From positions 1 through 15,508 of the forward strand of contig JBBCJC010000007.1 of assembly GCA_037189525.1 (NCBI GenBank): 15,508 nucleotides of DNA. Reading direction: 5' to 3'. Position 1 is the first letter of the stretch. Every line of letters starts with the position of its first letter. The stretch comes from Gemmatimonadales bacterium (GTDB lineage Bacteria; Gemmatimonadota; Gemmatimonadetes; Gemmatimonadales; GWC2-71-9). A model generated the notes under the pieces. That model was not told the DNA's origin. It made no database searches and saw only the letters and a list, made by a program, of their open reading frames with translations. Positions 229 through 15,253 of the stretch are shown here, piece by piece. Both the position numbers and the translations under genes were made by a program.

Positions 229-353
229 GCGTATCTCTTCGTGGGCCTTAATCTGCCCTTGAACCGCTTTGCCCCTGGGCTGTTGGCTTGCCCGAGTGTC
301 CGGGCCGAATCTGGATTCGGAACAGAATCGGCAGTCATTGCTCCCCAGTTGCC

Positions 354-491
354 GTCTAACAGGGTGTTGCAGCGGGCAGGCGCGCGAGGTGCCGGTTTGC
401 GGCGTCGCGGCCGCGCCCCCATGTTGGTTAGAGGACGGCGCGGCCGCTCGGCTCCGTGGGCGCCTGCCGCTGAACACCAAAGTCGTTAGCC
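354..491 (+). repeat. attC site 1 (family A)
   Basis: GTCTAAC...GGTGTT-G-CAGCGG-G-CAGGCGC / GCGCCTG-CCGCTG-AACACC...GTTAGCC. Confidence 0.93.
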
Positions 492-508
492 GGCGTACCG
501 AGATTCCA

Positions 509-1036
509 ATGTCCCAAGATCTCCCGAGCAAAGCGAAGCGAGTGCGGTGGCGGCCTGGTCTTGTTGTCACCATCCCATTGAAGGACGGTAGCTGGGGAAT
601 CGGCCAAACTGGCGATCTCATGATGCCCAATGTCGGATACGTGGCCCTTTTCAACGAGCGACTTAACTCGCTCGCCTCAGTGGTCCCGATACTCACGCGT
701 AGAGCCCTGATTAGTTTGCTTGCCGTCACGCGCCACAGCGTTTCCACTGGGCGATGGCATGTGATCGACGAGGGTCACCCGCTCGTTCCGAAAACGGAGT
801 TTCCGAACGAGCAATTCGCCGCCACGGGGTACGTGGGCGCCAAGCTGTACGACTCCGAGCTAGTCGAGGACTTTCTCGACGCCTACTATGGATTGGCACC
901 TTGGAACGGCGACTTCCTCGAAGAGGACTATCTCGACCGGTTCCTTCTCCCGGGTCGGCCGCGCCCCCAAACCGCTATCCTACTTTCACCGGTAGAGCGA
1001 GCGGAGTACCGACATCGCCGCGGTTTGCCGCAATGA
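509..1036 (+). CDS. Putative immunity protein, Imm26-like (175 aa)
   Basis: First ATG after attC1; the longer ORF from 269 runs through the attC. N-terminal WRPGLVVTIPLKDGSWGIGQ resembles the Imm26 pattern G-x-V-x-x-IPL-x-DG-x3-G-Q. Confidence 0.6.
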   Translation: MSQDLPSKAKRVRWRPGLVVTIPLKDGSWGIGQTGDLMMPNVGYVALFNERLNSLASVVPILTRRALISLLAVTRHSVSTGRWHVIDEGHPLVPKTEFPNEQFAATGYVGAKLYDSELVEDFLDAYYGLAPWNGDFLEEDYLDRFLLPGRPRPQTAILLSPVERAEYRHRRGLPQ

Positions 1037-1055
1037 AGATCGCGTCTTGTACGCC

Positions 1056-1193
1056 GGCTAACAAGGTGTTGCAGCGGGCAGGCGCGCGAGGTGCCGGTTT
1101 GCGGAGTCGCGGCCGCGCCCCCATGTTGGTTAGAGGACGGCGCGGCCGCTCGGCTCCGTGAGCGCCTGCCGCTGAACACCCAAGTCGTTAGCC
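1056..1193 (+). repeat. attC site 2 (family A)
   Basis: GGCTAAC...GTTAGCC; same hairpin as attC1. Confidence 0.93.
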
Positions 1194-1206
1194 AGACTGA
1201 AATCCA

Positions 1207-1719
1207 ATGTTCTCATTCCGATGTTCTTGCTGCGGTGAGCTGCACGAAGGCGTCCCTTCCTTCGGATGGGACTACCCGATTCCGTACCTGGATGTGCCCG
1301 AGGCGGACAGGATCACGCGTTGCCACCTCACCTCCGACATTTGTGTGATCGACGGGCAGTTCTTCTTCGTTCGCGGATGCCTTGAGGTACCGGTGCTTGG
1401 GCAGAACGACCCGCTGTCCTGGGGAGTTTGGGCGTCTCTGAGTGAGCGGAACTTCGCGCATTTTCAGGAACTGTACGATGAACCGAAGCGCGCTCACCAT
1501 GGTCCGTTCTTCGGCTGGTTGAGTGCTCACATTTGGATCTATCCCGATACCGTGAACCTGAAAACAAAGGTTCACCTCCGTGACGATGGGATCCGGCCCT
1601 ACGTGGAGCTTGAACCCACTGATCACCCGCTCGCTGTCGAGCAGCATCAGGGCATCACTCCGGAACGAGTCGCGGAGATCTACGAGATGATAGTTCATGG
1701 TTCCAGCGCAGCTGGCTAA
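1207..1719 (+). CDS. DUF2199 domain-containing protein (170 aa)
   Basis: CSCCGELH N-terminus, FFVRGCLEVPV, WGVWASLSE, FFGWL and LEPTDHPL motifs typical of DUF2199. The stop TAA lies inside the attC3 TAAC core. Confidence 0.85.
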   Translation: MFSFRCSCCGELHEGVPSFGWDYPIPYLDVPEADRITRCHLTSDICVIDGQFFFVRGCLEVPVLGQNDPLSWGVWASLSERNFAHFQELYDEPKRAHHGPFFGWLSAHIWIYPDTVNLKTKVHLRDDGIRPYVELEPTDHPLAVEQHQGITPERVAEIYEMIVHGSSAAG

Positions 1720-1853
1720 CAAGGTGTTGCAGCGGGCAGGCGCGCGGAGTCCCGGTTTGCGGAGTCGCGGCCACGCCCCCATGTTGGTTGGAGGATGGCG
1801 CGGCCGCTCGGCTCCGTGAGCGCGCCTGCCGCTGAACACCAAGGTCGTTAGGC
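1714..1853 (+). repeat. attC site 3 (family A)
   Basis: GGCTAAC...GTTAGGC. Confidence 0.93.
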
Positions 1854-1884
1854 GTATCCCTGCCGACGTTGCCATGAGGATGCT

Positions 1885-2406
1885 ATGAGCAATGATTCGC
1901 CCCCTCCCGCGGCTGCTCCTTTAGAAGATCGGGTGGCCCTTTCGCTGGGGCGTATGGTCCTCCGGTTCTCCGTACTGGAATCTGTCACTCGCTATGCCTT
2001 GCTGCATGTATTAGATGTTGCCGACGACGATGAAACCCGCATTGAGGCGCTGCTTGCTACTCTTCCATTTAGACGCCTACGGGACGCACTCGCCGCGACC
2101 GTGCACGATATCTATGGAGACGGCGCAGAATGGTTGTCACTGCGCGAGCTTCTGGCGCGGATAGACGAGGTCGAGGCTCGTCGTAATGCCCTAGTGCATT
2201 CGGCCTGGATTCACAGTGATTTGCCGGCGAGAATTACAAGGGAGAAACTGGGGTTTAGCGGTGGTGGAAAGCGACGTACTGATCGCGAAACGTTCGATGA
2301 TGTCGTCACGCTCGATAAGTTTGTTGCCGATGTCAACGATTTGGGCGAAGCGATGATCAAATGGTACACAAGGAAGCTTCTTGAAGTGGCCCCGACATCC
2401 AAATAG
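1885..2406 (+). CDS. Hypothetical helical protein, possibly HEPN-like (173 aa)
   Basis: GAGGA RBS before ATG; fills the cassette; contains FSVLE and RNALVH (R-x4-H) motifs. Confidence 0.7.
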   Translation: MSNDSPPPAAAPLEDRVALSLGRMVLRFSVLESVTRYALLHVLDVADDDETRIEALLATLPFRRLRDALAATVHDIYGDGAEWLSLRELLARIDEVEARRNALVHSAWIHSDLPARITREKLGFSGGGKRRTDRETFDDVVTLDKFVADVNDLGEAMIKWYTRKLLEVAPTSK

Positions 2407-2437
2407 CTGTGAGGTCATCCTGTTTCCTCGCGCGAAC

Positions 2438-2577
2438 GCCTAACAAGGTGTTGCAGCGGGCAGGCGCGCGGGGTACCGGTTTGCGGAGTCGCGGCCGCGC
2501 CCCCATGTTGGTTGAAGGACAGCGCGACCGCTCGGCTCCGTGAGTGCGCCTGCCGCTGAACACCAAAGTCGTTAGGT
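2438..2577 (+). repeat. attC site 4 (family A)
   Basis: GCCTAAC...GTTAGGT. Confidence 0.93.
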
Positions 2578-2600
2578 AGCTGCAAGCATCGGAGGATCAG

Positions 2601-3173
2601 TTGCTTCCCTGGCGCACGGTTGGCCTCATCCTTCTAGCTTTTCCGGTGCTGGGCTGTGTCCGTAAAACACATACGGCCGGGGAGCCAACTTGTTCCCTAT
2701 CCTGGCAACCTCAATGGAGTCTCGACTCCTCCTTAGCCGTGTGTGTGCCGCCGGGGTTCGTATCGGATCGGGCGGCGAGACCAGACGAGATTACCATCAA
2801 ACGGTACCATCCGTCGAACAGCGCCTTGACATCCGATCTCCTCACCATCGCACTGATCCCATGGTCTGCGGATTCCGCATCCATCGACTGGCCACCGACG
2901 CTCGTGTCTGGCCCGACTTGCTTGCTCCACTGTATGACGGTGGACTCGCTTATAAGCCATCAGGATACGGTTGGCGGGATTGTCGTTTCTACGGAAGTTG
3001 GCCTTATGAGTGGCGGAATGATGGGCTGGCAACGCAAGCCTGGTATAAAGGCGGGGTGGATACTGTCGGCCTATCGCCGCGGTTGGGGGCAGGGATTCGC
3101 GGAGAACAGCAGTACGCTCGATACCCTTCGCCATGTCATCGGGAGTAGTGTAGTCGCTTCGGTCATCCCGTGA
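2601..3173 (+). CDS. Putative lipoprotein of unknown function (190 aa)
   Basis: GGAGG RBS before TTG; hydrophobic N-terminus ending VLGC (lipobox-like); ends just before attC5. Confidence 0.7.
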   Translation: MLPWRTVGLILLAFPVLGCVRKTHTAGEPTCSLSWQPQWSLDSSLAVCVPPGFVSDRAARPDEITIKRYHPSNSALTSDLLTIALIPWSADSASIDWPPTLVSGPTCLLHCMTVDSLISHQDTVGGIVVSTEVGLMSGGMMGWQRKPGIKAGWILSAYRRGWGQGFAENSSTLDTLRHVIGSSVVASVIP

Positions 3174-3179
3174 CCAGCT

Positions 3180-3315
3180 ACCTAACAAGGGTTTGCAGCG
3201 GGCGGCCGGGCGGGGTTTCTCTTCCGAAGTCGCGGCCACGCCCCCATGTTAGTTGGAGGATGGCGTGGCCGCTCAGCTCCGTGCCGGCCGCCGCTGAAAC
3301 CCAAAGTCGTTAGGC
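3180..3315 (+). repeat. attC site 5 (family B)
   Basis: ACCTAAC...GGGTTT-G-CAGCGG / CCGCTG-AAACCC...GTTAGGC. Confidence 0.93.
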
Positions 3316-3646
3316 GGCTTGGCTGAGAAATTTTTTGGTGGTGGTTGTGTGCGTGGCGCTCCGGTGCGCGTGTTCGACCGGGATCGCTGCTTCCCGGGGC
3401 GGCGCGCATCGGCCGTCGCCCTGCCTCGCGGGGCCGCTTGCGGTACGGATGGGCTACACAGCGGACGACGCGCGCCGGCGCGCCGTGTCGGGTTGCGTTC
3501 CGTGCGCGCGCTCGCCGCTGCGGCCCCGTCCAGGCGGGGGTCAAGGTCCGCGGCCCCGCCGCAGACGTCGGGGTCGCCGCGCCACCTCGGCGGGATTTCC
3601 AGTGCCGCTGGCGCACCAGGGCGGTGGTGTGCGCAGCGGGCACGCC
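3316..3646 (+). ncRNA. Gene-less cassette body, copy 1; candidate structured non-coding RNA or regulatory element
   Basis: Homologous to 4608-4941, 5798-6129 and 9762-10094. No clear RBS or conserved frame; invariant motifs and hairpins. The RNA role is inferred. Confidence 0.45.
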
Positions 3647-3791
3647 CCCTAACAGGCGGTTGGAGACTGACGGCCGCGTGTGGGTCGCGAGGCCCATGCC
3701 TCGCGCGCCGCCCAAGGCGGCGGTACTTTCACCGCCAGGTGGGGCGGCGCGCCTCCACTGCGGCCGCAGCTCAACCGCTAAGTCGTTAGGC
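3647..3791 (+). repeat. attC site 6 (family C)
   Basis: CCCTAAC..GCGGTTG-G-AG-A-CTG-A-CGGCCGC / GCGGCCG-CAG-CT-CAACCGC..GTTAGGC. Confidence 0.9.
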
Positions 3792-3819
3792 TGCACTCAG
3801 AACCATGGTGAATGCGTAA

Positions 3820-4455
3820 ATGATCTCGCTTCTGCTCCTTGCCGTTGGTCTCCAGAGTGCCCCGCAGGATACGACGCAGTCCGTCTTCACGCGGCTCGTG
3901 TTCAGGCGATTTGAGCAGTTGGCGCAAGACTCGGCGGTTCGCCGCGCTACAGGTGCCATCAATGGGCTCACTCTGGCCCAAAAGGTCCTCACCTCTGCCC
4001 CGCGCACCTATAGTGACCCGGCAAATGCTCGCTTGATCCAAGCTCTAGCAGCAACGGTGTCCAACGCCTCGGAACCCGTATGCAGCAGGATGCTACACAC
4101 GCCACTGGATGCTGCCCAGTTTACCGCACTTGCGGCGCCGCTCGATTCCACCGGCGTCGTACCGTGGGTGGAGGTGTTTGCTGACATGGTCTGGGCTATA
4201 GTCAGGCCAGCCCCCACGGGCCGCATCGCCACGTTAGCCGAGTGGCGAGCAAGCCTTGTGCGGATGGAGGCCGAGGCGACTCCTCGTGTAAGGGCCGCGT
4301 TGAGTCGCGTACGGCGTGGTGGCGAAGCGGCACGGGATCGGTGCACCGTCGTTCGGGCTGGACTTCTATGGCTCGCGAATATGCCTGCACAAGAGAGCGG
4401 GCCGTTCATGAGGCTGCTCTTCGACTCCGATGTTCCGTTTAACCCGGCGGCTTGA
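3820..4455 (+). CDS. Hypothetical secreted protein (211 aa)
   Basis: Fills the cassette between attC6 and attC7; N-terminal hydrophobic signal-like segment MISLLLLAVGLQSA. Confidence 0.7.
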   Translation: MISLLLLAVGLQSAPQDTTQSVFTRLVFRRFEQLAQDSAVRRATGAINGLTLAQKVLTSAPRTYSDPANARLIQALAATVSNASEPVCSRMLHTPLDAAQFTALAAPLDSTGVVPWVEVFADMVWAIVRPAPTGRIATLAEWRASLVRMEAEATPRVRAALSRVRRGGEAARDRCTVVRAGLLWLANMPAQESGPFMRLLFDSDVPFNPAA

Positions 4456-4467
4456 GAGCGCTGTGCA

Positions 4468-4607
4468 GCCTAACAGGGTGTTGCAGCGGGCAGGCGCACG
4501 GAGTACCGGTTTGCGCAGTCGCGGCCGCGCCCCCATGTTGATTGGAGGATGGCGCGGCCGCTCGGCTCCGTGCGCGCGCCTGCCGCTGAACACCAAAGTC
4601 GTTAGGT
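4468..4607 (+). repeat. attC site 7 (family A)
   Basis: GCCTAAC...GTTAGGT. Confidence 0.93.
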
Positions 4608-4941
4608 GCTTAGGCCGAAAACACTTTGTAGTGGTTGTGGTGGTGTTGGGGTTTTCGGTGCATCGTTCGGCCGTTCCTGCTGCGTCTTCGAACGGGCGCG
4701 CAGCGACAGGTGTCCAGGTGAGCGGGGCCGCCGCGACGGGGGGCGGGCTACACAGCGGTCGAGCCGCCCGTTGCTCTGTGGTCCTGTTCGGTTCCGCACG
4801 GCGGCTCGCCGCTGCGGCCCCGCGGACTGCCACGGTCGGGTGCGGCAGCCCCGCCGCTGGGGCCCGGGCTTGGCGCGCCCGTCCGGCGGGGTGTCCGGTG
4901 CCGCTGGCGCACCAGAGATGAGTTTTGCGCAGCAAGCACGC
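4608..4941 (+). ncRNA. Gene-less cassette body, copy 2 (most diverged); candidate structured non-coding RNA or regulatory element
   Basis: Retains GGGCTACACAGC (4745), CTGCGGCCCCG (4812) and GCCGCTGGCGCACCAG (4900) at offsets matching the other copies. Confidence 0.45.
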
Positions 4942-5083
4942 ACCTAACAAGCAATTGGAGACTGACGGCCGCGGGTCCGGAGCCAGCTTCTTGCCTCGCG
5001 CGCCGGTAAGATCAGCGGTACCTTCGGAGGTCCGCGTGGGCGCGCCTCCACCGCGGCCGCAGCTCAATCGCAAGGCGTTAGGC
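4942..5083 (+). repeat. attC site 8 (family C, diverged)
   Basis: ACCTAAC..GCAATTGGAGACTGACGGCCGCG / CGCGGCCGCAGCTCAATCGC..GTTAGGC. Confidence 0.88.
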
Positions 5084-5099
5084 GGAAGCGAGCATCACG

Positions 5100-5642
5100 A
5101 TGCATCTGCGATTGATCGCAAGGATCTTCGGCAGTGGTGTACTCGTAGGCATGTGTACGGCATGTGCCGGGCAAACACTCGTGATCTCGATTCCACCGCC
5201 AAAGTGCGAGCAAATTGAAACCGTCGTTCACTGTAACCCTTCGACCCAACTTCGTTGGCGGCGGAACAACACCATGCCGTCGTACAACCAAGTCCTGCAA
5301 CAGGCCGACATCTGGGGTCGAGCAACGGTCCATGTTCAGGTTCGCCCCGCCGGCGTTGTTGACAGCGTTGCCGTCTGGCATGCGTCGCATGTCGCTCTTG
5401 TTGCACCAATTGCGGCGGCGGTTCAGACTTGGCTGTTCGAGCCGTTTTCCGCCGACAGTAGTGAAGCATCGCTACAGAGAGGTCTTACCGTTGAGTTCGT
5501 ATATCGTGTTTACGGCTGCCGCACCCATGAATCCAAGGTTGTCGTACGAGCTCGACCGGCTTCCCTCCTTATTGAGGAGGATCTCTGTAGTACGGTAAGG
5601 GTGATTCGAGACCCGGCCCCTGTTGTGCGTGAGCAACCTTGA
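5100..5642 (+). CDS. Exported protein with TonB C-terminal-like domain (180 aa)
   Basis: N-terminal hydrophobic segment with CTAC. PSYNQVLQQADIWGRATVHVQVRPAGVVDSV...AAAVQTWLFEP resembles the TonB_C pattern P-x-Y...G-x-V-x-V-x-V...W-x-F-x-P. Confidence 0.65.
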   Translation: MHLRLIARIFGSGVLVGMCTACAGQTLVISIPPPKCEQIETVVHCNPSTQLRWRRNNTMPSYNQVLQQADIWGRATVHVQVRPAGVVDSVAVWHASHVALVAPIAAAVQTWLFEPFSADSSEASLQRGLTVEFVYRVYGCRTHESKVVVRARPASLLIEEDLCSTVRVIRDPAPVVREQP

Positions 5643-5662
5643 GCTGCGAGTGGTTCAGTTCC

Positions 5663-5797
5663 GCCTAACAGGGGTTTGCAGCGGGCGGCCGGGCGGGTTC
5701 CTCTTCCGGAGTCGCGGCCGCGCCCCCATGTTGGTGGGAGGATGGCGCGGCCGCTCGGCTCCGTGCCGGCCGCCGCTGAAACCCAGAGTCGTTAGGC
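5663..5797 (+). repeat. attC site 9 (family B)
   Basis: GCCTAAC...GTTAGGC. Confidence 0.93.
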
Positions 5798-6129
5798 GGC
5801 TTGGTTGAGAGAATTTTATGGTGGTGTGGTGGGTGGTGGGGCGCCGGTCCGCGTGTTCGGCCGCGATCCCTGCTCCCCGGTGTGGCGCGCATCGGCCGTC
5901 GTCGGGGTTCGCGGGGCCGCTTGCGGTAAGGCCGGGCTACACAGCGGACGACGCGCTCCGGTCCTCCTCGTGCGGCGGGGCCCCGCTGGCGCGCTCGCCG
6001 CTGCGGCCCCGTCCAAGCGGAGGTCCAGGTCCGCGGCCCCGCCGCGGCGTTCCGGGTCGCCGCGCCACCCCGGCAGGCGCCGGTGTGCCGCTGGCGCACC
6101 AGAACGGTGGTGTGCGCAGCGGGGACGCC
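5798..6129 (+). ncRNA. Gene-less cassette body, copy 3; candidate structured non-coding RNA or regulatory element
   Basis: Closely similar to copy 1; invariant motifs at 5934, 6001 and 6087. Confidence 0.45.
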
Positions 6130-6274
6130 CCCTAACAGGCGGTTGGAGACTGACGGCCGCGTGTGGGTCGCGAGGCCCATGCCTCGCGCGCCGCCAAAGG
6201 CGGCGGTACCTTCACCGCGTAGTGGGGCGGCGCGCCTCCACTGCGGCCGCAGCTCAACCGCTAAGTCGTTAGGT
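6130..6274 (+). repeat. attC site 10 (family C)
   Basis: CCCTAAC...GTTAGGT; near-identical to attC6 and attC15. Confidence 0.9.
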
Positions 6275-6293
6275 GGCCAGGAGAGTCTGTCGA

Positions 6294-7230
6294 TTGACCA
6301 AAATCACCGAAGGTGTAAGCCGATTTATTGAGCAGTTCGGACTCGGAGCGACCCTTTCGTTCGGGGATCAGTTCGCTGGCCTCGAAGACCTCATGATCAT
6401 TACGAACGGCGGGCTGCCCATTGCGATCCCCTTCAATTCGGATCCCGATGATGTGGCCAACGCTCAGGCCGTCGCTGTGGCCAGGCAGTTGGGGCTCCGG
6501 TCCGTCGACTATGCACGGCGCGCCTACATCGATCGTAGTCCGAGGGAGCAAACCCAACTAACAGGAGCCTATGCGTATCTAGTTGAGGCGTCATCCCGAG
6601 CAAAGACTCTCGTAAAAGATAAAGCAAGGAGCTACTACTCGATTCGAGACAAGCCAGACCATGCTGGTGTCTTTGCTGCCGGGTGCGCCCTATTACGTCT
6701 TGTAATGACCTTTCGAACAGCTGTGTACTCGCTCAGACAGGGAATGCACTTTGAGTTCGGCCTTCTCGGGCGCCTAATTCTGGAACAAGTGGCATGGGCG
6801 TACGCTGTACACTCGCTGGAGGACGATACAATTCTCCAACTTCAGCCTCAAAAGCAGATTGGTGCCCTGAAAGAGATCTTTCCAGACATCGGTGCGTTCT
6901 ACGGCTCGCTGAGCAAGCAAGCGCATATCGCTCCACAGGCCGCGCTCAGATACCTTGATTTTACAGCACCCTCAGACCCCCGCGGTCCGCTTCACTATGT
7001 ACGAGTATGGCGGTATAGACTTAGTGTCGCTTACTCGACTTGTCGATATCTATTGCGTTGCTGTTGACATCGTCGCAGCTTCATACAAGCGCCAATGGGC
7101 CTCAGTGCGAAAACAAAAAGATGCCGGATATCGCGTGCTTAAAGGCCGCCCATCTGCGCTATTTGCAGCGCGCATACGCAAAGGAGTCCAAAGGTTCACC
7201 GGACCCGCAGATCGTGGCGGGGCCACCTAA
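6294..7230 (+). pseudogene. Frameshifted gene (or sequencing error), DUF5677/HEPN-like hypothetical protein, about 311 aa if repaired
   Basis: AGGAG before TTG at 6294. ORFs 6273-7067 and 6955-7230 fuse if one C is removed from the C5 run at 6977-6981, and the fused ORF stops in the attC11 TAAC. Motifs RLILEQ and YGSLSKQAH. Confidence 0.65.
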
Positions 7231-7364
7231 CAAGGTGTTGCAGCGGGCAGGCGCGCGGGGCGCCGGTTTGCGGAGTCGCGGCCGCGCCCCCATGTTGGTT
7301 GGAGGATGGCGCGGCCGCTCGGCTCCGTGAGTGCGCCTGCCGCTGAACACCAAAGTCGTTAGGC
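7225..7364 (+). repeat. attC site 11 (family A)
   Basis: ACCTAAC...GTTAGGC. Confidence 0.93.
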
Positions 7365-7398
7365 GTCACCGCCACCATCGGGATCTGGGGAGGTTACT

Positions 7399-8358
7399 CT
7401 GCCGCGAACATCGGTTCTCGTAATTCTCCTCACGTTTGGTATCGCTTCCATGACGGACGCGCAGCGCCGCACGACGTGGGTTGCCCGGCTCGACAACGAC
7501 TACTTTGCGGTGTGGCAACCCGTCAACGCACGTCCCGATCACAACTATACCCAAGGACTCAACCTCGCCGTCTTCTGGCCCTCCAGTTCTCCGTTGGGGA
7601 ACCTCCTTGCAAACTGTAGTGCCTGTCAGCTGTTGGGTACGATCGCGTTCGGTCAAGAGATCTACACGCCGGAGATCGATGCGCAGGCTCCGCAACCCGG
7701 TCAACGGCCATACGCTGGGTGGCTCGCCGCGGCGATCGGCCTCGCTCGGGTCGGGCCAGGGCACATTACAGCCGCACGAGTGGTCCTTGGCGTAACCGGT
7801 CCGCCGTCGCTGGCTGAGGCTGCCCAGGTCGGCGCCCATCGCTTGCTCGGATATCGCGAACCGCTCGGATGGGCTTATCAGCTGCCAGCCGAATTGGGGA
7901 GCTACGCCGAATACGAGTTCGCCAAACAAGTAGCCCAAGCGTCGATCGGATCACTCGGACTGCAGTTGGCTGGTGGGGGAGCGGCGCGTGTAGGTACGGT
8001 CCATGTCGATGGCCGCGCGACTGCCCGGGTCGCCGTGGGGGTCCATCCAACGACGGATGGCCGGACCGTTCTTGGCCCAGCCTCCGGCAGCGGCAGCCTC
8101 TTTGTCTGGGTGGCGGGTCACGTCGACGGGGTTCTTCGAAACGAGTTCCTACAGGGCACGACGTTTCGTTCCTCGGCAGGGGTTTCGATTCGCCATCTGG
8201 TGCCGGAGGTCGAGCTGGGGGTCTCGGCCCGCCTGGGTGAGGTGCGTGTCTCGGGTGCCTATCTTCGCCGTGGACGGGAGTATCCGGCGCAGATGGCTCC
8301 CCATGGATATGTGCGTCTCACGGCCGCCCTCCTGGGGATCGGCCGAGGTGGCGCCTAA
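7399..8358 (+). CDS. Lipid A deacylase LpxR-family (DUF2219) outer-membrane protein; probable CTG start at 7399 (first ATG at 7450)
   Basis: Motifs LDNDYF, DHNYTQG, GQEIYTP, RPYAGWL and GVTGPPS characteristic of LpxR/DUF2219. The in-frame extension to CTG 7399 behind GGGGAGGT supplies a signal peptide. Stop lies in the attC12 TAAC. Confidence 0.85.
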   Translation: MPRTSVLVILLTFGIASMTDAQRRTTWVARLDNDYFAVWQPVNARPDHNYTQGLNLAVFWPSSSPLGNLLANCSACQLLGTIAFGQEIYTPEIDAQAPQPGQRPYAGWLAAAIGLARVGPGHITAARVVLGVTGPPSLAEAAQVGAHRLLGYREPLGWAYQLPAELGSYAEYEFAKQVAQASIGSLGLQLAGGGAARVGTVHVDGRATARVAVGVHPTTDGRTVLGPASGSGSLFVWVAGHVDGVLRNEFLQGTTFRSSAGVSIRHLVPEVELGVSARLGEVRVSGAYLRRGREYPAQMAPHGYVRLTAALLGIGRGGA

Positions 8359-8492
8359 CAAGGTGTTGCAGCGGGCAGGCGCGCGGGGCTCCGGTTTGCG
8401 GAGTCGCGGCCGCGCCCCCATGTTGGTTGGAGGATGGCGCGGCCGCTCGGCTGCGTGCGCGCGCCTGCCGCTGAACACCAAAGTCGTTAGAC
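8353..8492 (+). repeat. attC site 12 (family A)
   Basis: GCCTAAC...GTTAGAC. Confidence 0.93.
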
Positions 8493-8509
8493 AGCAACAA
8501 GAAGGTCCG

Positions 8510-8932
8510 ATGCACTATCGCCTTCTCAGCATCGTTCTTCTCCTGCTAGCGTGCGGATCAAGTCCGGATGCAAAGCAAGCCCGTGCCATCAGAATTCTCG
8601 TCGAGCGGATCGCACCGGCCCAACACGCGTACCACGCTGCACAAGGGACGTTTGCGCCCGATGCCCGATCCCTGTTGGGCAGCGACGAGATCGACGGGCT
8701 TCGGCTCCTGGTCGATGGCGACACGGCGGGCTGGAATGCCTCGGTCTTTGATCCGGCGCTGGGGCCAGCCACCTGCGTGATGTCGGTGGGTCGTCCAGCC
8801 CTGCGGCGCAAGCTGCCCGGCGGTTTAACGGTACAGGTACCGGGCACGATCGTGTGCATAGACTACGCGGAATGGGTTCGGCAGGGTCGTATTGCGGAGG
8901 CCCGGTATGATTCCCTGGGCATCCGGATCTAG
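8510..8932 (+). CDS. Putative lipoprotein of unknown function (140 aa)
   Basis: GAAGG before ATG 8510; MHYRLLSIVLLLLAC lipobox-like signal. The listed ORF 8003-8932 is an extension through the attC. Confidence 0.75.
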   Translation: MHYRLLSIVLLLLACGSSPDAKQARAIRILVERIAPAQHAYHAAQGTFAPDARSLLGSDEIDGLRLLVDGDTAGWNASVFDPALGPATCVMSVGRPALRRKLPGGLTVQVPGTIVCIDYAEWVRQGRIAEARYDSLGIRI

Positions 8933-8963
8933 CGTGCCGGTCGGTCTGCGTTCCGTCGCTGCT

Positions 8964-9100
8964 GTCTAACAGGGGTTTGCAGCGGGCAGCCGGGGCGGGT
9001 CTCCTCTTCCGGAGTCGCGGCCGCGCCCTCATGTTAGCTGAGGATAGCGCGGCCGCTCAGCTCCGTGCCCGGCTGCCGCTGAAACCCAAAGTCGTTAGGC
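8964..9100 (+). repeat. attC site 13 (family B)
   Basis: GTCTAAC...GTTAGGC. Confidence 0.93.
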
Positions 9101-9198
9101 CGACCAAGGATCCGAGTGAGCACCGTATACATCCATCTGCAGCCGCGTGACCCGTATCACAGCGTTCTGGCGAGTCGCGAACTAGCTTATGTCTTGCG

Positions 9199-9591
9199 AT
9201 GACGATTCCCTGGCAGAATTGGAGAGCCCTTGGCCTTCTTGCCCCGCTTCTAGGGGCGTGTGCCACCGATACCGTTTGCATCCTCGAGCCAGATCCGACG
9301 ATCCGGGTTACCGTGTTGGACGCGGAAACCGGCCGCGCAATCACGGACAGCGCGTCCGGCTTCGTGACGCTTGGCGCACGACGTTCGGATCTCATTCGAT
9401 TCGAGTACCGCGTGGGCGGCGGAGCGACTCTCATTCTGGCGAGCTTTGAGCAGACCCCGGGTTCCTACCAAGTCGTTGTGACTCGGCCCGGCTACGATCA
9501 GTTCGCCATGAGCGGGATCCAGATCGAGAAAGGTCACTGCTTTTCGAGAGGGCCCGCCCTCACAGTACCCCTGAACCGCCGCTCTTCGTAG
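9199..9591 (+). CDS. Putative lipoprotein with carboxypeptidase-regulatory-like beta-sandwich domain (130 aa)
   Basis: LLGAC lipobox; VTVLDAETGRAI...PGSYQVVVTRPGY pattern typical of CarboxypepD_reg-like domains. Confidence 0.7.
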   Translation: MTIPWQNWRALGLLAPLLGACATDTVCILEPDPTIRVTVLDAETGRAITDSASGFVTLGARRSDLIRFEYRVGGGATLILASFEQTPGSYQVVVTRPGYDQFAMSGIQIEKGHCFSRGPALTVPLNRRSS

Positions 9592-9622
9592 CAACAGCGC
9601 GACCCGTGATGCCCAGCCGGCG

Positions 9623-9761
9623 GCCTAACAAGGTGTTGCAGCGGGCAGGCGCGCGGGGTGCCGATTTGCGGAGTCGCGGCCGCGCCCCCATGTTGGTTGG
9701 GAGGATGGCGCGGCCGCTCGGCTCCGTGAGCGCCTGCCGCTGAACACCAGAGTCGTTAGGC
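9623..9761 (+). repeat. attC site 14 (family A)
   Basis: GCCTAAC...GTTAGGC. Confidence 0.93.
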
Positions 9762-10094
9762 GGCTTGGTTGAGGGAATTTTATGGTGGTGTCGTGGGTGG
9801 TGGGCATCGGTCCGCGTGTTCGCCCGGGATCGCCGCTCCCCGGGGTGGCGCGCGTCGGTTGCGCCCCAGCGTTGCGGAGCCGCCCGGGGAACTGTCGGGC
9901 TACACAGCTGTCGAGGCGCGCCGGCGATCACGGCCAGTGGGTCTCCGGTGTGCGCGCCTCGCACCTGCGGCCCCGTCCGGGCCGTGGTCGGGCTCGGCGG
10001 CTCCGCCTCGGTGATCCGTTGCCGGCGCGCCACCCCGGCGAGGTTCCCGGCGCCGCTGGCGCACCAGGGCGGTGGTGTGCGGAGCGGGGACGCC
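9762..10094 (+). ncRNA. Gene-less cassette body, copy 4; candidate structured non-coding RNA or regulatory element
   Basis: Invariant motifs at 9897, 9965 and 10052; ends resemble copy 3 while the centre is diverged. Confidence 0.45.
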
Positions 10095-10239
10095 CCCTAA
10101 CAGGCGGTTGGAGACTGACGGCCGCGTGTGGGTCGCGAGGCACATGCCTCGCGCGCCGCCAAAGGCGGCGGTACCTTCACCGCGTAGTGGGGCGGCGCGC
10201 CTCCACCGCGGCCGCAGCTCAACCGCTAAGTCGTTAGGC
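10095..10239 (+). repeat. attC site 15 (family C)
   Basis: CCCTAAC...GTTAGGC. Confidence 0.9.
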
Positions 10240-10269
10240 CGCATACTAGCATATGTGCTCTATAAGCCT

Positions 10270-10824
10270 ATGAAACTCGCAACCAAACGCCAACTTGCGG
10301 TCGGCTTGGTCGTTACAATCGGGGGCGGCCTTGCCGTCGAATTCCTGAAGGGGTTCCCGGTTCTAGGCTGGATCGGAAATGCTCTAGGACGGCTAGCCAA
10401 TTGGCTAGGCTCACCAGTTACCATACAACGGTGGGTGCTCATCAGCTTCTGGATAATGCTGATACTGTTTGTCGGTGCGATAGTTCGAAGGTTCCGCCGC
10501 CCTGCTGGGCCAACGTGGTTAGCCTATCAGACCGATCATTTTCTTGATGTCACCTGGCGATGGCAATACTTCGGCAACTCTGTCGCTGAAGGAACAGTAG
10601 TGCCATACTGTCCCAAGTGCCTATGCCAGATGGTCTTTGTTAATGCAAGCACCTACACCGCCGTACCGCGAACTGCAGTCACCTGCGACGAGTGCGGCTA
10701 CAGTCGCCAATTTGAGGGCTATCCCAACGACATCCGAAATAGAATCGGCCGCCTCGTTGAGCGTTCCATAAATACCGGTACCTGGCTGAAAGCTCATGCA
10801 CAGATCGATGGCGATGCGGCCTAA
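10270..10824 (+). CDS. Membrane protein with two N-terminal TM segments and a C-terminal CxxC...CxxC zinc-ribbon-like domain (184 aa)
   Basis: First ATG after attC15; hydrophobic segments LAVGLVVTIGGGLAV and WVLISFWIMLILFVGAIV; CPKC and CDEC motifs; stop in the attC16 TAAC. Confidence 0.75.
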   Translation: MKLATKRQLAVGLVVTIGGGLAVEFLKGFPVLGWIGNALGRLANWLGSPVTIQRWVLISFWIMLILFVGAIVRRFRRPAGPTWLAYQTDHFLDVTWRWQYFGNSVAEGTVVPYCPKCLCQMVFVNASTYTAVPRTAVTCDECGYSRQFEGYPNDIRNRIGRLVERSINTGTWLKAHAQIDGDAA

Positions 10825-10956
10825 CAAGGGTTTGCAGCGGGCAGCCGGGCGGGGCTCCGCTTCCGGAGACGCGGCCGCGCCCCAATGTTGATTGGGAGGA
10901 CGGCGCGGCCGCTCGGCTCCTTGCCCGGCTGCCGCTGAAACCCAGAGTCGTTAGAC
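10819..10956 (+). repeat. attC site 16 (family B)
   Basis: GCCTAAC...GTTAGAC. Confidence 0.93.
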
Positions 10957-10991
10957 GGCACATTCGACCATAGCCTCACCTTTGAGGACGT

Positions 10992-11729
10992 ATGACTGAT
11001 CCGATATCCGTCAAGACACCTCCTGCACGACTATACTCGATCTTCGATCCATTGGTGTCTAACGCGGAGCACGAGGGCAAGGTGACGGGACATGTACTTG
11101 CTCTTGCCATGGGTCGCGAGAACGGTGAGGTCCAGGGAGTGTGGTATGCTGCCCATGTCGAGGTCATGGGTCTTCTCGATGGCGCTGAGTCGTATGTCCG
11201 TGATAGGACACTGGACTACGACAATTCGCCCCATAGACGCACGTTCGCAACCCTTCGGCAATACTTCTCTGAGCTGCATCTCAATAATTCGTGGCAAAAC
11301 TATCGTCGCAATTTTGAACCTCTGATCACCATCGCGTTACCATTCTCTATCCATGCGGCCGAGCTTGATGCCCAAGCGGTGTCGATCGACCCCGCCAGCG
11401 TGGAGACTGTCAAAAGCAAACTTGATGGGTTGATTCAGGCCGTCAAAGATTCGGACTATCCGGCTGAGTTCCGCACTGAACTCCTATCGGCTCTCGTTCA
11501 GTTGAAGGATAAGATCACGAGATTTGAAGTATTCGGCCCCGAGGGTATTAAGGCTGTAACCGCAGCCGTCGTTGGCACTATGGTCGTCAACGAGGCCGTT
11601 GTGAAAACCAATAGGGAGATTGCGATTGAGGCCGCAGACCTCATAAACACGATCGCCGATGTATTCCTGAAATCATATGCCGTCGCGCACCTTATCGGCC
11701 AAACAGTGCTTGGTCTTCTACGCAGCTAG
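10992..11729 (+). CDS. Hypothetical helical protein (245 aa)
   Basis: GAGGA RBS; fills the cassette; visibly lower GC than the attC sites. Confidence 0.8.
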   Translation: MTDPISVKTPPARLYSIFDPLVSNAEHEGKVTGHVLALAMGRENGEVQGVWYAAHVEVMGLLDGAESYVRDRTLDYDNSPHRRTFATLRQYFSELHLNNSWQNYRRNFEPLITIALPFSIHAAELDAQAVSIDPASVETVKSKLDGLIQAVKDSDYPAEFRTELLSALVQLKDKITRFEVFGPEGIKAVTAAVVGTMVVNEAVVKTNREIAIEAADLINTIADVFLKSYAVAHLIGQTVLGLLRS

Positions 11730-11740
11730 TTAACTGTGCC

Positions 11741-11877
11741 GTCTAACAGGGGTTTGCAGCGGACGGCCGGGCGGGGTTCCGCTTCCGAAATCGCGGCCGC
11801 GCCCCCATGTTGGTTGAAGGATGGCGCGGCCGCTCAGTTCCTAGAGCGGCCGCCGCTGAAACCCAAAGTCGTTAGAC
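11741..11877 (+). repeat. attC site 17 (family B)
   Basis: GTCTAAC...GTTAGAC. Confidence 0.93.
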
Positions 11878-11940
11878 CGCGTCGATGTATCATAGAGATC
11901 GTAGCCCACGTTCCTGTCGTTTCTACTTAGGAGCTAGTCT

Positions 11941-12540
11941 ATGATCAGGATCAAGTCGCCCGTTGGTGCTATTCGTCCTCGTCAATTGACCTCTGGCCAG
12001 CGCTGGCTCCGAGGATGGGGGCGTCTCGCACTGATTGCCTTGCCCATCGCAATCTTGTACTTCTGGGTAACGCTAGGATCCGATGCCAATAGAAATAGCT
12101 TGAAACTCTTGTATCCATCTTTTTCTCCGACCTGGGAGTCACCAGGGTACGAATCCCCAAATCGCTGGATGAGGATTGCCGCCGGCACAGACTTCCGGCA
12201 GCTCGATGAACCCACTCAGCGTCAGCACGCAGCAGATTTCTTCGATACCGAGCTTGCTGGGCTTATGCAGGCCCTCTATCTGAATGCGGACGCCTTCCGC
12301 AGTACTTTCGTTCGTGCATCTGTTGAAGGCCCAATTCGTAGGGATGCGCTTGGCGAACCATACCGAGACATTCTTGCCTTCGGTCATCCTGCTCGGGCTC
12401 ACGGCAGTCTACTACTGAATGCAGCCGGTCTCGGGGCTCTTGCAACAGCATGGCTCTGGATCCCTGTCTTTTTGCTAGCAAGTGGGATCCGATGGGTCAT
12501 AGGTGGTTTCCGAGGGCGGTCTGATGCTCGACCAGGGTGA
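11941..12540 (+). CDS. Hypothetical membrane protein with N- and C-terminal TM segments (199 aa)
   Basis: AGGAG RBS; hydrophobic stretches LALIALPIAILYFWV and ALATAWLWIPVFLLASGI. Confidence 0.75.
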   Translation: MIRIKSPVGAIRPRQLTSGQRWLRGWGRLALIALPIAILYFWVTLGSDANRNSLKLLYPSFSPTWESPGYESPNRWMRIAAGTDFRQLDEPTQRQHAADFFDTELAGLMQALYLNADAFRSTFVRASVEGPIRRDALGEPYRDILAFGHPARAHGSLLLNAAGLGALATAWLWIPVFLLASGIRWVIGGFRGRSDARPG

Positions 12541-12545
12541 CCGCG

Positions 12546-12686
12546 GTCTAACAAGGTGTTGCAGCGGGCAGGCGCGGCGGGGTGCCGGTTTGCGGAGTCG
12601 CGGCCGCGCCCCCATGTTGATTGGAAGATGGCGCGGCCGCTCGGCTCCGTGAGTGCGCCTGCCGCTGAACACCAGAGTCGTTAGCC
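12546..12686 (+). repeat. attC site 18 (family A)
   Basis: GTCTAAC...GTTAGCC. Confidence 0.93.
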
Positions 12687-12714
12687 CGCAGCTCTGAACC
12701 TTTCTAGTTGAGCA

Positions 12715-13488
12715 TTGTCAACGATGTGGATCTCGCCCGCAATCTTCGACTGGGAGCCCATGGTCACGGGCTGGTCTGTAGCGGAGGCAGACGGTTGGCG
12801 ACGCCCCTATGAGCATTGGAATCACGCAGAGGGTCTCCTTTCTAAGGCAACTACTGAGTTTGTGCGGATTGACATCGTCACTACTCTGAAGCGAGCGTTT
12901 GATCGACGGCTTCAGCACCTAGAAGCGATGTACTCGTTCAAGGCCCTTCCCCTCACGGGGCAGCCGCGCCGACGGCTAGAGCGCTTAGCTTTCATCGGAT
13001 TGTTACGACCGCTCCTCATCGACAAGCTAGTCGATATTCGGAACAGAATCGAACACGAGGATCGAGGAACCCCGTCGACTGAGTACTGCGCCGAACTGCT
13101 CGACGTAGTATGGTATTTCCTGCGCTCAACCGATTCCCTCGTGAGGCAACGAACTATTGACATCGAGTTCGATCCTACTCATCGACCTGGAGGGCCGTAT
13201 CGATTTTCGCTTAGCGTAGACTACAGCTCACAGTGGAGTGTGAAGCTAAAGGGTTGGATACCGTATACAATGACATCTACTGTGGAAGTAGTCGGATGGC
13301 TACACGTTGCTGTTGATGAGTTGAAGCATGCAGCTGACTATCGGCAAATCTCGAAAGAGGATGCGAAGCACGAGTGGGAGATTGCTCAGGCAGCCCGAGA
13401 TCCGCGAGATGTTCATCTCCAGGCAAGGCTCTTGGGACCAGAACAACAATGCCTTATGGTCTATCAGCATTTCCTCGGCCTTCGCTAG
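12715..13488 (+). CDS. Hypothetical protein with N-terminal HEPN-like motif (about 257 aa; start TTG 12715 or ATG 12724)
   Basis: Fills the cassette; helical N-half with IRNRIEH (R-x4-H). Confidence 0.7.
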   Translation: MSTMWISPAIFDWEPMVTGWSVAEADGWRRPYEHWNHAEGLLSKATTEFVRIDIVTTLKRAFDRRLQHLEAMYSFKALPLTGQPRRRLERLAFIGLLRPLLIDKLVDIRNRIEHEDRGTPSTEYCAELLDVVWYFLRSTDSLVRQRTIDIEFDPTHRPGGPYRFSLSVDYSSQWSVKLKGWIPYTMTSTVEVVGWLHVAVDELKHAADYRQISKEDAKHEWEIAQAARDPRDVHLQARLLGPEQQCLMVYQHFLGLR

Positions 13489-13512
13489 AAACGAAGTCCC
13501 TGGCACACTGCG

Positions 13513-13649
13513 GGCTAACAAGGGTTTGCAGCGGGCAGCCGGGTGGGTCTCCTCTTCCGAAGTCGCGGCCGCGCCCCCATGTTGTTTGGAGGATGGCGCG
13601 GCCGCTCAGCTCCTAGAGCGGCTGCCGCTGAAACCCAAAGTCGTTATAC
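13513..13649 (+). repeat. attC site 19 (family B)
   Basis: GGCTAAC...GTTATAC (non-consensus R'). Confidence 0.92.
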
Positions 13650-13762
13650 GGCCTTGGTCGGCCACACTTTCCGCAGCCTACTACTCCGAGCCGTGCCTTT
13701 GGCGAGGCTAAGGGGTGCCTTACCGTGATACACCTATTTGCCCCTGAGGCGGAGTCCTTGCC

Positions 13763-14296
13763 ATGCGCCGAGTTCGTCCAACCTTCTTCAGTTTGGTGCT
13801 CGTCTTTGGTGCGGCCTGTGCTCCAGTCTCGATTGGCGCGCAGGCGGTCGCTGGTAGCGCCGATGGTTTGACGTCCGGGCCGCTCTTCGATGCACTGGCA
13901 CGGATGGACAGCGTTCTGTTCGACGCATCCTTTACCTCCTGTGATGCGACCAAAGCCAACGCGATCTTCACTGACGATGTCGAGTTCTATCACGATCAGA
14001 CCGGCTTCGCGGCCGGAGAACAGGTGCGCGAGAACACGCGCCGCCTGACCGCATCGTGTCCCCGGAACCACGGCGTGACGCGTACGGTGATTCCCGGTAG
14101 CTTGCGCATCTATCCAATCCAGGGCTATGGGGCCGTTCAGATGGGCGTGCATCGCTTCGATGAGCGTGGCGCCAGCTCCAGCACCCTGACGCGGTTTGTG
14201 CATCTGTGGCGTCTCGAGAATGGGACCTGGCGTCTCGCACGCGTGCTCAGTCTGGATCACCATCCCGTGCCACCGATCCGCCCCGACGTACGCTGA
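13763..14296 (+). CDS. Nuclear transport factor 2 (NTF2)/DUF4440 family secreted protein (177 aa)
   Basis: GGAG RBS; signal peptide; DSVLFDASFTSCD, DVEFYHDQTG, GAVQMGVHRF and FVHLWRLENGTWRLARVLSLDH motifs. Confidence 0.85.
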   Translation: MRRVRPTFFSLVLVFGAACAPVSIGAQAVAGSADGLTSGPLFDALARMDSVLFDASFTSCDATKANAIFTDDVEFYHDQTGFAAGEQVRENTRRLTASCPRNHGVTRTVIPGSLRIYPIQGYGAVQMGVHRFDERGASSSTLTRFVHLWRLENGTWRLARVLSLDHHPVPPIRPDVR

Positions 14297-14430
14297 CGAG
14301 CGACCGGAGTGCATCTACGCCGATCGCGGTACGGACACTCGGCTGTCTCTCGGCCTGTTCATTGGGTTAGGTCTAGCGGACCGGTGTAGGCCGATCTCCC
14401 GCAGCTCCCCGCGCCGATCACGACGGGGCC

Positions 14431-14571
14431 GTATAACAAGGTGTTGCAGCGGGCAGGCGCGCGGGGCCCCGATTTGCAGAGTCGCGGCCGCGCCCCCCAT
14501 GTTTGTGGGAGGTTGGCGCGGCCGCTCGGCTCCGTGAGCGCGCCTGCCGCTGAACACCAAAGTCGTTAGGC
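14431..14571 (+). repeat. attC site 20 (family A)
   Basis: GTATAAC...GTTAGGC. Confidence 0.92.
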
Positions 14572-14593
14572 GGACAGGACGAAGGACGAGACA

Positions 14594-14965
14594 ATGGCTC
14601 GACTCGAGGACACTCGACTCATTCTCGCGGTGCGGAATCTTCGCACTGCCACCGACTTTTTTATGAATACCCTGGGCTTCCAGCGAGACTTCGGCGATGA
14701 GTCGGACGGCTGGAGCTGGCTATCTCGGGAGAATTTCCGCGTCGGCCTGGGCGAATGCCCGGATGTGGTGCCGGCCAGCGAGCTGGGCGATCATTCGTAC
14801 GTAGCGTATATCAACGTGGATGACATCGACAGTCTCTACGCCGAACTCGTCTCACGGGGAGCGTCGATTGGGGCGTCCCCCGAAGCGAAGCCGTGGGGAA
14901 TGCGGGAGTTCGCGCTGCGAACGCCCGACGGTCATCGCATGACGTTCGGCAGTGTTGTGCGATGA
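14594..14965 (+). CDS. VOC family protein (glyoxalase/bleomycin resistance-like, 123 aa)
   Basis: LAVRNLRTATDFFMNTLGF, YINVDDIDSLYAEL and PWGMREFALRTPDGHRMTF motifs. Confidence 0.9.
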   Translation: MARLEDTRLILAVRNLRTATDFFMNTLGFQRDFGDESDGWSWLSRENFRVGLGECPDVVPASELGDHSYVAYINVDDIDSLYAELVSRGASIGASPEAKPWGMREFALRTPDGHRMTFGSVVR

Positions 14966-15114
14966 GATTGCGATGATCGGGATGGCCGGCGGTGTCTGGG
15001 GATGGCGCGCGGACGTGCCTCCCAACGGAGAATGGCACAACACAGTTGCCTTGAGGGACTCTCCTTGGAATGTCGATAGCTTCCTAACTCGGCTATGGCC
15101 CGGATCGCTGTGCC

Positions 15115-15253
15115 GCCTAACAGGGTGTTGCAGCGGGCAGGCGCGCGGGGGCGCCGGTTTGCAGAGTCGCGGCCGCGCCCCCATGTTGGTGGGAGGCTGG
15201 CGCGGCCGCTCGGCTCCGTGGGCGCCTGCCGCTGAACACCAAAGTCGTTAGGC
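15115..15253 (+). repeat. attC site 21 (family A)
   Basis: GCCTAAC...GTTAGGC. Confidence 0.93.

Follow-up and report, generated by a model that had tools for sequence, protein, structure and literature searches.

Four copies of a non-coding integron cassette with a folded body in a Gemmatimonadales genome

The role of gene-less cassettes in integrons has been open since 2006. In the sections of the Vibrio account drawn on here, such cassettes make up 6-49% of arrays, and paralogous non-coding cassettes are proposed to be selfish or useful to the integron (Boucher et al. 2006, PMC1382264). Promoters account for only some of them. A cassette product of another kind is sRNA-Xcc1 of Xanthomonas, an integron-encoded small RNA (sRNA) (Chen et al. 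2011, as cited in PMC8876359). In an integron setting, motifs that act as single-stranded DNA and motifs that act as RNA are hard to distinguish computationally, and one of the survey's own "RNA" motifs was in fact an attC, according to the part of the motif survey used here (Weinberg et al. 2017, PMC5737381). Here we describe four gene-less cassettes, c1 to c4, in a 15,508-nucleotide (nt) stretch of DNA from a Gemmatimonadales bacterium (assembly GCA_037189525.1, contig JBBCJC010000007.1), called the window below. They are four copies, in two subfamilies, of a mobile non-coding cassette with a folded nucleic-acid cargo.

The centre of this cargo is an imperfect hairpin of about 200 nt, which we call the rod. 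The family thereby gives the question of gene-less cassettes a defined, covariation-backed structure, conserved over at least two genera. Knowing whether the rod serves recombination or yields a transcript with a phenotype would show either that integrons carry parasites of their own or that they spread structured RNAs.

Four copies of one non-coding cassette

The window is the whole 15.5-kb contig C7 of a 4.65-Mb genome with 65.5% GC (G000), and is occupied by an array of integron cassettes that reads along the + strand. All four units begin at TTAGG and stop at the G before the next TTAGG, which marks them as integron cassettes. A preliminary description of the window, made from its letters, had presented them as homologous cassettes with three shared motifs, a strongly diverged second copy, and a 5′ AT-rich patch followed by a GGT-rich tract. 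Alignment and the G|TTAGG bounds agree with it on these points, and all three motifs are located in all four copies, at the coordinates and spacing of Table 1. The bodies of c1, c3 and c4 (subfamily A) are 75-81% identical to one another. That of c2 (subfamily B) is 59-63% identical to those three; its closest relative is m2, on a metagenome contig (L036), with 79% body identity. The attC parts are far more alike than the bodies, at 95-99% within subfamily A. The ends of c4 are like those of c3, but some of its rod segments are nearer to m1, a copy from another genome, and this patchwork suggests mosaic exchange between copies.

Cassettes of subfamilies A and B follow one order: TTAGGC, a low-GC patch with a G/T-rich tract (about 80 nt together), the rod, a spacer of about 10 nt, a hairpin of about 45 nt, 3 nt, and the attC. 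Motif 1 is invariant in 6/6 full copies, which include the relatives m1 and m2; in m1 the last G of motif 2 is replaced by A. Across the 4.65 Mb of G000, the 12-mer (motif 1) and the 16-mer (motif 3) occur only at the four cassette sites, and the 11-mer (motif 2) occurs at 12 sites, four of them in the cassettes. BLAST, a motif search and nhmmer found no further copy outside the array in G000. A miniature inverted-repeat transposable element (MITE) or dispersed palindromic repeat was rejected as an identity for the element, every genomic copy being inside the cassette array. Each cassette contains the palindrome GGCGCGCC or GGCGCGC three or four times, in the two rod arms, the rod tip of some copies and the attC, and a scan for inverted repeats by which the body might mask its own attC returned only pairings that run through GGCGCGCC-type palindromes.

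The cassettes do not code for protein. Open reading frames (ORFs) of 105-156 amino acids (aa) are open on their + strand, but a composition of 75% GC leaves hardly any of the six frames closed, which makes long open frames uninformative here. GC in the bodies stays at 71-76% whichever codon phase is taken; in most of 11 control ORFs from the window it drops at codon position 2. Substitutions show no preference for any of the three phases in 9/9 comparisons between copies (p 0.29-0.97). Indels of 1 and 2 nt fall in at least 12 alignment columns scattered through the body, and every pair of copies is separated by frameshifting indels except c1 and c3, where the one indel, at column 20, precedes the shared ORF. 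In agreement with the earlier observation, translation of the ORFs whose stop is the TAA in the attC R″ box gives the 12-mer as GYTA, ATQ, GYTA and GLHS, three frames in all. A search of 5.8 billion proteins for relatives of the 156-aa ORF gave only two matches, one from this contig and one from a contig of nearly equal length, and neither of two cassette ORFs searched against Pfam had a match. The earlier judgement that protein coding is unlikely holds on all of these grounds.

A covarying rod beside a private attC

RNAalifold returns one and the same nested rod on both strands. In its core, motif 1 on the 5′ side pairs with motif 2 on the 3′ side, and an invariant asymmetric loop sets ACA opposite C. 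Further out, GCGGGGCCGC pairs with GCGGCCCCGC and GGCGCGC with GCGCGCC. Counted over the six full copies, which come from three sources, the rod comprises 53 pairs, with 92% of the cells paired. Two-sided changes occur at 14 of the 53 pairs, compared with 8.8±1.7 in shuffles (0/500 reach 14) and 1-4 in slid registers; related sequences can exceed shuffles on some pair measures, and the two measures rated robust gave 0/500 and 1/500. Arm-swap folds, which are independent of the alignment, ranked the cognate 3′ arm first or second of six for each 5′ arm in 6/6 rows, and the column ranks were 1, 6, 1, 1, 2 and 1, with c3 as the exception. The base pairing of the cargo is under purifying selection. 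Folding energies are uneven, with rod z-scores from -0.3 (c3) to -6.1 (m1) and modest values for whole bodies (-1.5 to -4.5).

The preliminary description had proposed a functional RNA of about 330 nt or a structured DNA element. A covarying structure is indeed present; its conserved core consists of the rod, about 200 nt long, and its flanking motifs, rather than of an established 330-nt RNA. The element had also been set apart from tRNA, tmRNA, RNase P, SRP, 6S RNA and group II introns, in line with an Rfam 15 covariance search of the whole window on both strands that gave 0 matches at E<=1. Among the findings that had been named as refuting that description, neither a conserved reading frame nor an Rfam or MITE identity emerged; covariation is present, and the copies are confined to the array.

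The shorter hairpin between rod and attC holds a 15-mer, CCGCTGGCGCACCAG, whose 15 columns are invariant in 7/7 sequences; its pairing (helix 10) is without any compensatory change. By eye, the invariant 15/16-mer GCCGCTGGCGCACC (3604-3619 and equivalents) resembles the L′ arm of host attC sites, GCCGCTGAACACC (GCCGCTG..CACC, for example at 4583-4597), and the stretch right after it, TGCGCAGCGGGCA, resembles the host attC 5′ arm, TTGCAGCGGGCA. Judged by these resemblances, the short hairpin has the look of an attC stem turned inside out and lacking R boxes. A G.U-rich helix at the 5′ end is weakly supported: it is possible on the + strand only, its covariation score is equalled by 2/500 shuffles, and the slid controls overlap.

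Each copy ends in an attC of its own type. On the bottom strand the attC of c1 folds into an R-box stem, an unpaired spacer, single bulged bases and a branched tip, like host attCs, and three element attCs (DNA fold z -4.7 to -7.5) share the architecture of two host attCs. The type is found only with the element body, at 4/4 sites in G000 and as the sole true matches among the six loci from two collection scans (three each), and it accompanies the body into a genus whose own attCs differ. When a hidden Markov model (HMM) of 17 host attCs was run against the cassettes, it matched the element's own attC only, matches to the body reaching E 1.2-4.7. The rod as an attC site, with the body as a decayed host attC, was rejected: R and L boxes are absent, and the body has no host-attC HMM match. 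Each element attC holds GCGGCCGC twice.

Table 1. Features of the four cassette copies, in window positions
Feature	Position	Strand	Details	Basis
c1 whole cassette	3310..3785	+	476 nt, subfamily A	G|TTAGG bounds, alignment
c2 whole cassette	4602..5077	+	476 nt, subfamily B	G|TTAGG bounds, alignment
c3 whole cassette	5792..6268	+	477 nt, subfamily A	G|TTAGG bounds, alignment
c4 whole cassette	9756..10233	+	478 nt, subfamily A	G|TTAGG bounds, alignment
c1 5′ linker	3316..3393	+	AT-rich patch, then G/T-rich tract (bottom strand C/A-rich)	alignment
5′ linker in c2, c3, c4	4608-4687, 5798-5876, 9762-9839	+		alignment
Motif 1, GGGCTACACAGC	3451..3462; also 4745, 5934, 9897	+	12-mer, 142-144 nt past crossover G	
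Motif 2, CTGCGGCCCCG	3518..3528; also 4812, 6001, 9965	+	11-mer	
Motif 3, GCCGCTGGCGCACCAG	3604, 4900, 6087, 10052	+	16-mer	
c1 rod	3394..3590		imperfect hairpin, about 200 nt; covariance model R1 140.6 bits	consensus fold, pair counts
c2 rod	4688..4886		R1 151.4 bits; fold z -2.3 (+), -4.4 (-)	
c3 rod	5877..6073		least stable copy; R1 144.8 bits; z -0.7 (+), -0.3 (-)	
c4 rod	9840..10038		R1 154.8 bits; z -3.7 (+), -4.6 (-)	
c1 short hairpin	3601..3645	+	ends 3 nt before attC; holds 15-mer CCGCTGGCGCACCAG at 3605-3619	
15-mer CCGCTGGCGCACCAG in c2, c3, c4	4901-4915, 6088-6102, 10053-10067	+		
c1 private attC	3648..3790	-	R″ CCTAAC to R′ GTTAGG; DNA fold z -6.4	
c2 private attC	4943..5082	-	DNA fold z -4.7	
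c3 private attC	6131..6273	-	96-99% identical to c1 and c4 attCs	
c4 private attC	10096..10238	-		sequence comparison

Relatives, mobility and the host array

The cassette has relatives in four further genomes of the family and on one metagenome contig. The scans of large collections (185,579 species genomes and a metagenome collection) needed exact words, for example the invariant 19-mer of the element attC. With this 19-mer, the species genomes gave one true match, m1, of 476 nt, on a 3.4-kb contig (L033, genome G201/G344) annotated as an uncultured Gemmatimonas metagenome-assembled genome. The metagenomes also gave one, L036, where a partial A-type copy, m3, is followed directly by the full B-type m2 of 474 nt. 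Loci L032, L034, L037 and L038 were dismissed as chance 19-mer matches of 19-35 nt outside any integron context. A scan of the genome collection with motifs 1 and 2 together found no match, because motif 2 ends in A in m1. Searched alone against 200 family genomes and 400 phylum genomes, c1 was found in G000 only, and the c1-to-c2 stretch, against 400 family genomes, found the body only in G000 and G344; these genome searches scored only the top two to three candidates per genome, and weak relatives can escape them. Given exact-word scans and top-candidate scoring, the true distribution is probably wider than that found here.

A third subfamily, D, escaped the body search and was found through a weak attC match. 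It belongs to another genus and comprises d1 (513 nt, G398), d2 (G368, truncated where its contig stops) and d3 (G266). D bodies align with those of A and B above shuffles in 9/10 comparisons (z 3.7-16.9) and at z 1.3 in one, with confidence in parts only. Besides the attC type, D shares GTGGCGCGCATCG and GCGGGGCCGC with A and B at equal spacing. Covariance model R1 recognises the core hairpin of d3 only (E 0.014 and 0.003, with compensatory differences), not that of d1 or d2; folded to minimum energy, d1 and d2 both show this core, d1 with an extra branch. The 5′ linker is T-rich in A and B and CAA-rich in D. The fixed length put forward in the preliminary description therefore holds within subfamilies A and B (474-478 nt, relatives included), but not in the whole family, d1 being 513 nt long. 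At the head of d1 (L074:745-767, G398:C37) a core site is followed 12 nt on by an inverse core site (GTTAGGAGGCGTGGCTTCCTAAC), a tiny R′/R″ pair. Host-type attCs were found in 16/16 genomes of the genus.

The cassette is mobile, with four array positions in the window and copies in other genomes. The four copies stand among about 22 cassettes here, and adjacent copies occur on L036. The non-coding cassette family recurs in other genomes, including at attI. m1 is a first cassette, starting right after a junction that is 32/34 identical to the attI of G000 (…CAGGTCCATACACTAG|TTAG), and d2 starts about 60 nt past the stop codon of an integrase gene. For d3 a place at attI is tentative, with about 14 shared bases at the junction and no integrase nearby. 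The element is thus first at attI in two, perhaps three, cases. The first place in an array is that of the most recent insertion and is also the best expressed. No partner gene recurs beside m1 and m2; the next cassette downstream of m1 (L033:557-1666) codes for a 369-aa HNH_2-domain protein, and that of m2 (L036:755-1186) for a 143-aa WapI-like immunity protein.

The array counts about 22 cassettes, two of them cut by the window ends, rather than the 20 given earlier. Two host subtypes of attC, about 140 nt long and spanning the R″ box (CCTAAC) to G|TTAGG, stand between its cassettes. The 17 host attC sites (window 352-15253) carry …AAGGTGTTGCAGCGGGCAGGCGCG… or …GGGTTTGCAGCGGGCGGCCGGG… in mixed order; c1 and c3 are both preceded by an attC of the second host subtype, the two sharing 91% identity. 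The proteins of neighbouring cassettes are unrelated and include DUF2199, a TonB_C domain, LpxR, DUF4440 and a glyoxalase (Pfam). In the cassette at 8487-9094 the longest ORF (8589-9032, 147 aa, no Pfam match) lies on the - strand, against the array direction. Contigs of read run X1, when compared with the window, break at the attC repeats, the joints falling inside repeats.

An intI-like gene lies on a different contig of the same genome (G000:C2:2394-3322, L075), with attI and cassettes downstream in the same orientation; the window contig is not linked to C2. Against TIGR02249 this gene matches in two pieces of 225 and 131 bits, each below the 265-bit cut-off, in different frames, and the pieces overlap at 2909-2915. 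A frameshift, a pseudogene or a sequencing error might each explain the split. A gene co-directional with its attI and cassettes is the layout of an "inverted" integron.

Readings of the rod and comparison with known systems

We slightly favour a rod that works as folded DNA over one that works as sense-strand RNA. In the favoured reading, which we put forward tentatively, the rod would act in cis as single-stranded DNA to raise its own cassette's excision and insertion, and the cassette would be selfish and self-amplifying. The bottom strand would be exposed in replication, and the rod would fold together with the flanking attC hairpins. Such folding may keep the 340-nt body compact, leave little room for single-strand binding protein (SSB) and draw the two recombination sites together. 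As a result the cassette would be excised and re-inserted more often by the integron integrase, and selection on cassette mobility would maintain the rod. That the integron machinery (integrase, SSB, replication fork) reads this structure, and that the cassette is in this sense an integron parasite, is a possibility we regard with more doubt. If the single-stranded DNA reading is true, the cargo of the rod-bearing cassette would serve nothing but the cassette's own mobility.

The strand evidence bears directly on this choice. The variable rod pairs hold 12 G.U against 10 A.C cells, a balance that favours neither strand. In 5/6 copies the bottom strand, whose folding attC recombination uses, gives rod z-scores equal to or stronger than those of the top strand. 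Multiple copies, a private attC and a first place at attI fit a structured DNA element at least as well as an RNA. Several points weigh on the other side. We know of no published case of cassette cargo raising its own recombination, the literature searches having been directed at other questions, and the step from structure to excision is one that we purely infer. The invariant unpaired bases (UACA and the 15-mer) would need a sequence-specific reader, and they bear no resemblance to R or L boxes. The c1 and c3 rods fold scarcely better than shuffles (z -0.3 to -2.5), and the pair counts come from only six full sequences. One U.G pair is invariant in 6/6 copies on the + strand, and the combination of invariant loops with variable tips, plus the extra branch in D, is typical of functional RNAs. 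Nor does first place at attI tell DNA from RNA, since expression peaks there too.

A structured non-coding RNA made from the sense (+) strand, processed from read-through transcription of the array, or of intI in those cases in which the element comes first, is accordingly a rival of real standing, though we consider it uncertain. It could be a cis element for processing or stability, or an insulator, of the polycistronic cassette RNA, or a small RNA acting in trans; an antisense RNA would be a minor variant. The covariation of the rod, the invariance of its internal loop and of the 15-mer, and the features just named all suit it, as do the 5′ G.U-rich helix that could form on the + strand only, the shared direction of array and intI, and the position of the first-place copies just downstream of intI. 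There is also a precedent in the cassette-encoded sRNA-Xcc1, as far as PMC8876359 reports it. Set against these are the near-equal G.U and A.C counts, the bottom-strand z-scores, the lack of an Rfam family, and the presence of four diverged copies in one array, an odd arrangement for an RNA gene. Consensus scans of both strands in and around the copies (3200-6400 and 9650-10350) turned up neither a sigma-70-like promoter nor an intrinsic terminator, and with a 5′ linker that is T-rich in A and B but CAA-rich in D, there is no conserved promoter sequence.

The same linker bears on a promoter or other double-stranded regulatory cassette, in which the AT-rich patch would drive the downstream cassettes. 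This is improbable. The patch is the sole AT-rich stretch and sits at the cassette 5′ end, and the part of the Vibrionaceae study used here states that most tested gene-less Vibrio cassettes show sense promoter activity and that in-silico prediction is impossible (bioRxiv 10.1101/2023.11.21.568050). That caution applies to our finding of 0 consensus sites in the two regions searched, in-silico prediction being unreliable, but the sequence of the patch is not conserved between subfamilies, and a promoter leaves 200 nt of compensated pairing unexplained. Less probable again is that the body is neutral, either GC-rich filler or the decayed remains of, for example, an old attC or MITE, and that its pairing comes from composition alone. 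Any sequence of 75-80% GC folds well, the weakest rods do no better than shuffles, and R1 matches host attCs weakly (E 0.05-0.9). A relic would hardly keep its length at 474-478 nt over 37-41% A-B body divergence, with invariant motifs, compensatory changes above both controls and D bodies that still align above shuffles; the host attC HMM misses the body, and no copies lie outside the array. Least probable is a family of small protein genes or pseudogenes on either strand. The open + strand ORFs and the one frame that c1 and c3 share throughout are what speak for it, and they are outweighed by the composition that opens nearly all frames, the 12-mer in three frames, the flat composition and substitution profiles, the frameshifts and the want of protein or Pfam relatives.

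Among known systems, the non-coding Vibrio cassettes come closest. As far as they are described in the sections cited here (PMC1382264), they too are gene-less, have their own attC, occur several to an array and have close homologues only in related species, and they too are conserved over their whole length with no codon-like pattern at synonymous sites and no protein relatives. The present family differs in standing in a Gemmatimonas-type array with bodies of 71-76% GC, and its long chance ORFs of 105-156 aa exceed the limit in "no ORF above 150 bp" set for the Vibrio cassettes (Boucher et al. 2006). Its attC is private and distinct from that of the host array, and it carries a rod of about 200 nt backed by compensatory changes; those sections of the Vibrio account give no structure.

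The promoter cassettes of Vibrionaceae (bioRxiv 10.1101/2023.11.21.568050) and Treponema (PMC6557892), as far as they are covered here, are likewise ORF-less and may alter the expression of their neighbours, and the first position is considered to matter. Their cargo is an AT-rich promoter region, whereas that of the present family is a GC-rich covarying hairpin with no promoter consensus. With sRNA-Xcc1, a regulatory RNA product of a mobile cassette in the summary available in PMC8876359, the element shares the mobile cassette, and an RNA product is only a candidate. The two also differ in their relation to Rfam. The window has no match there at E<=1, and sRNA-Xcc1 is probably among its families.

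The rod is also comparable to attC sites themselves. It is an imperfect hairpin with conserved unpaired bases and a covarying stem, as attC is, and attC acts on the bottom strand; unlike attC, it has no R or L boxes and lies inside a cassette beside a normal attC. In the literature searched, with subscription journals not covered, we found no description of covarying structure in gene-less cassettes or of Gemmatimonadetes integrons. Compared with the systems above, what is new here is the host lineage, the private attC, a covariation-backed rod common to two genera, and the placement at attI.

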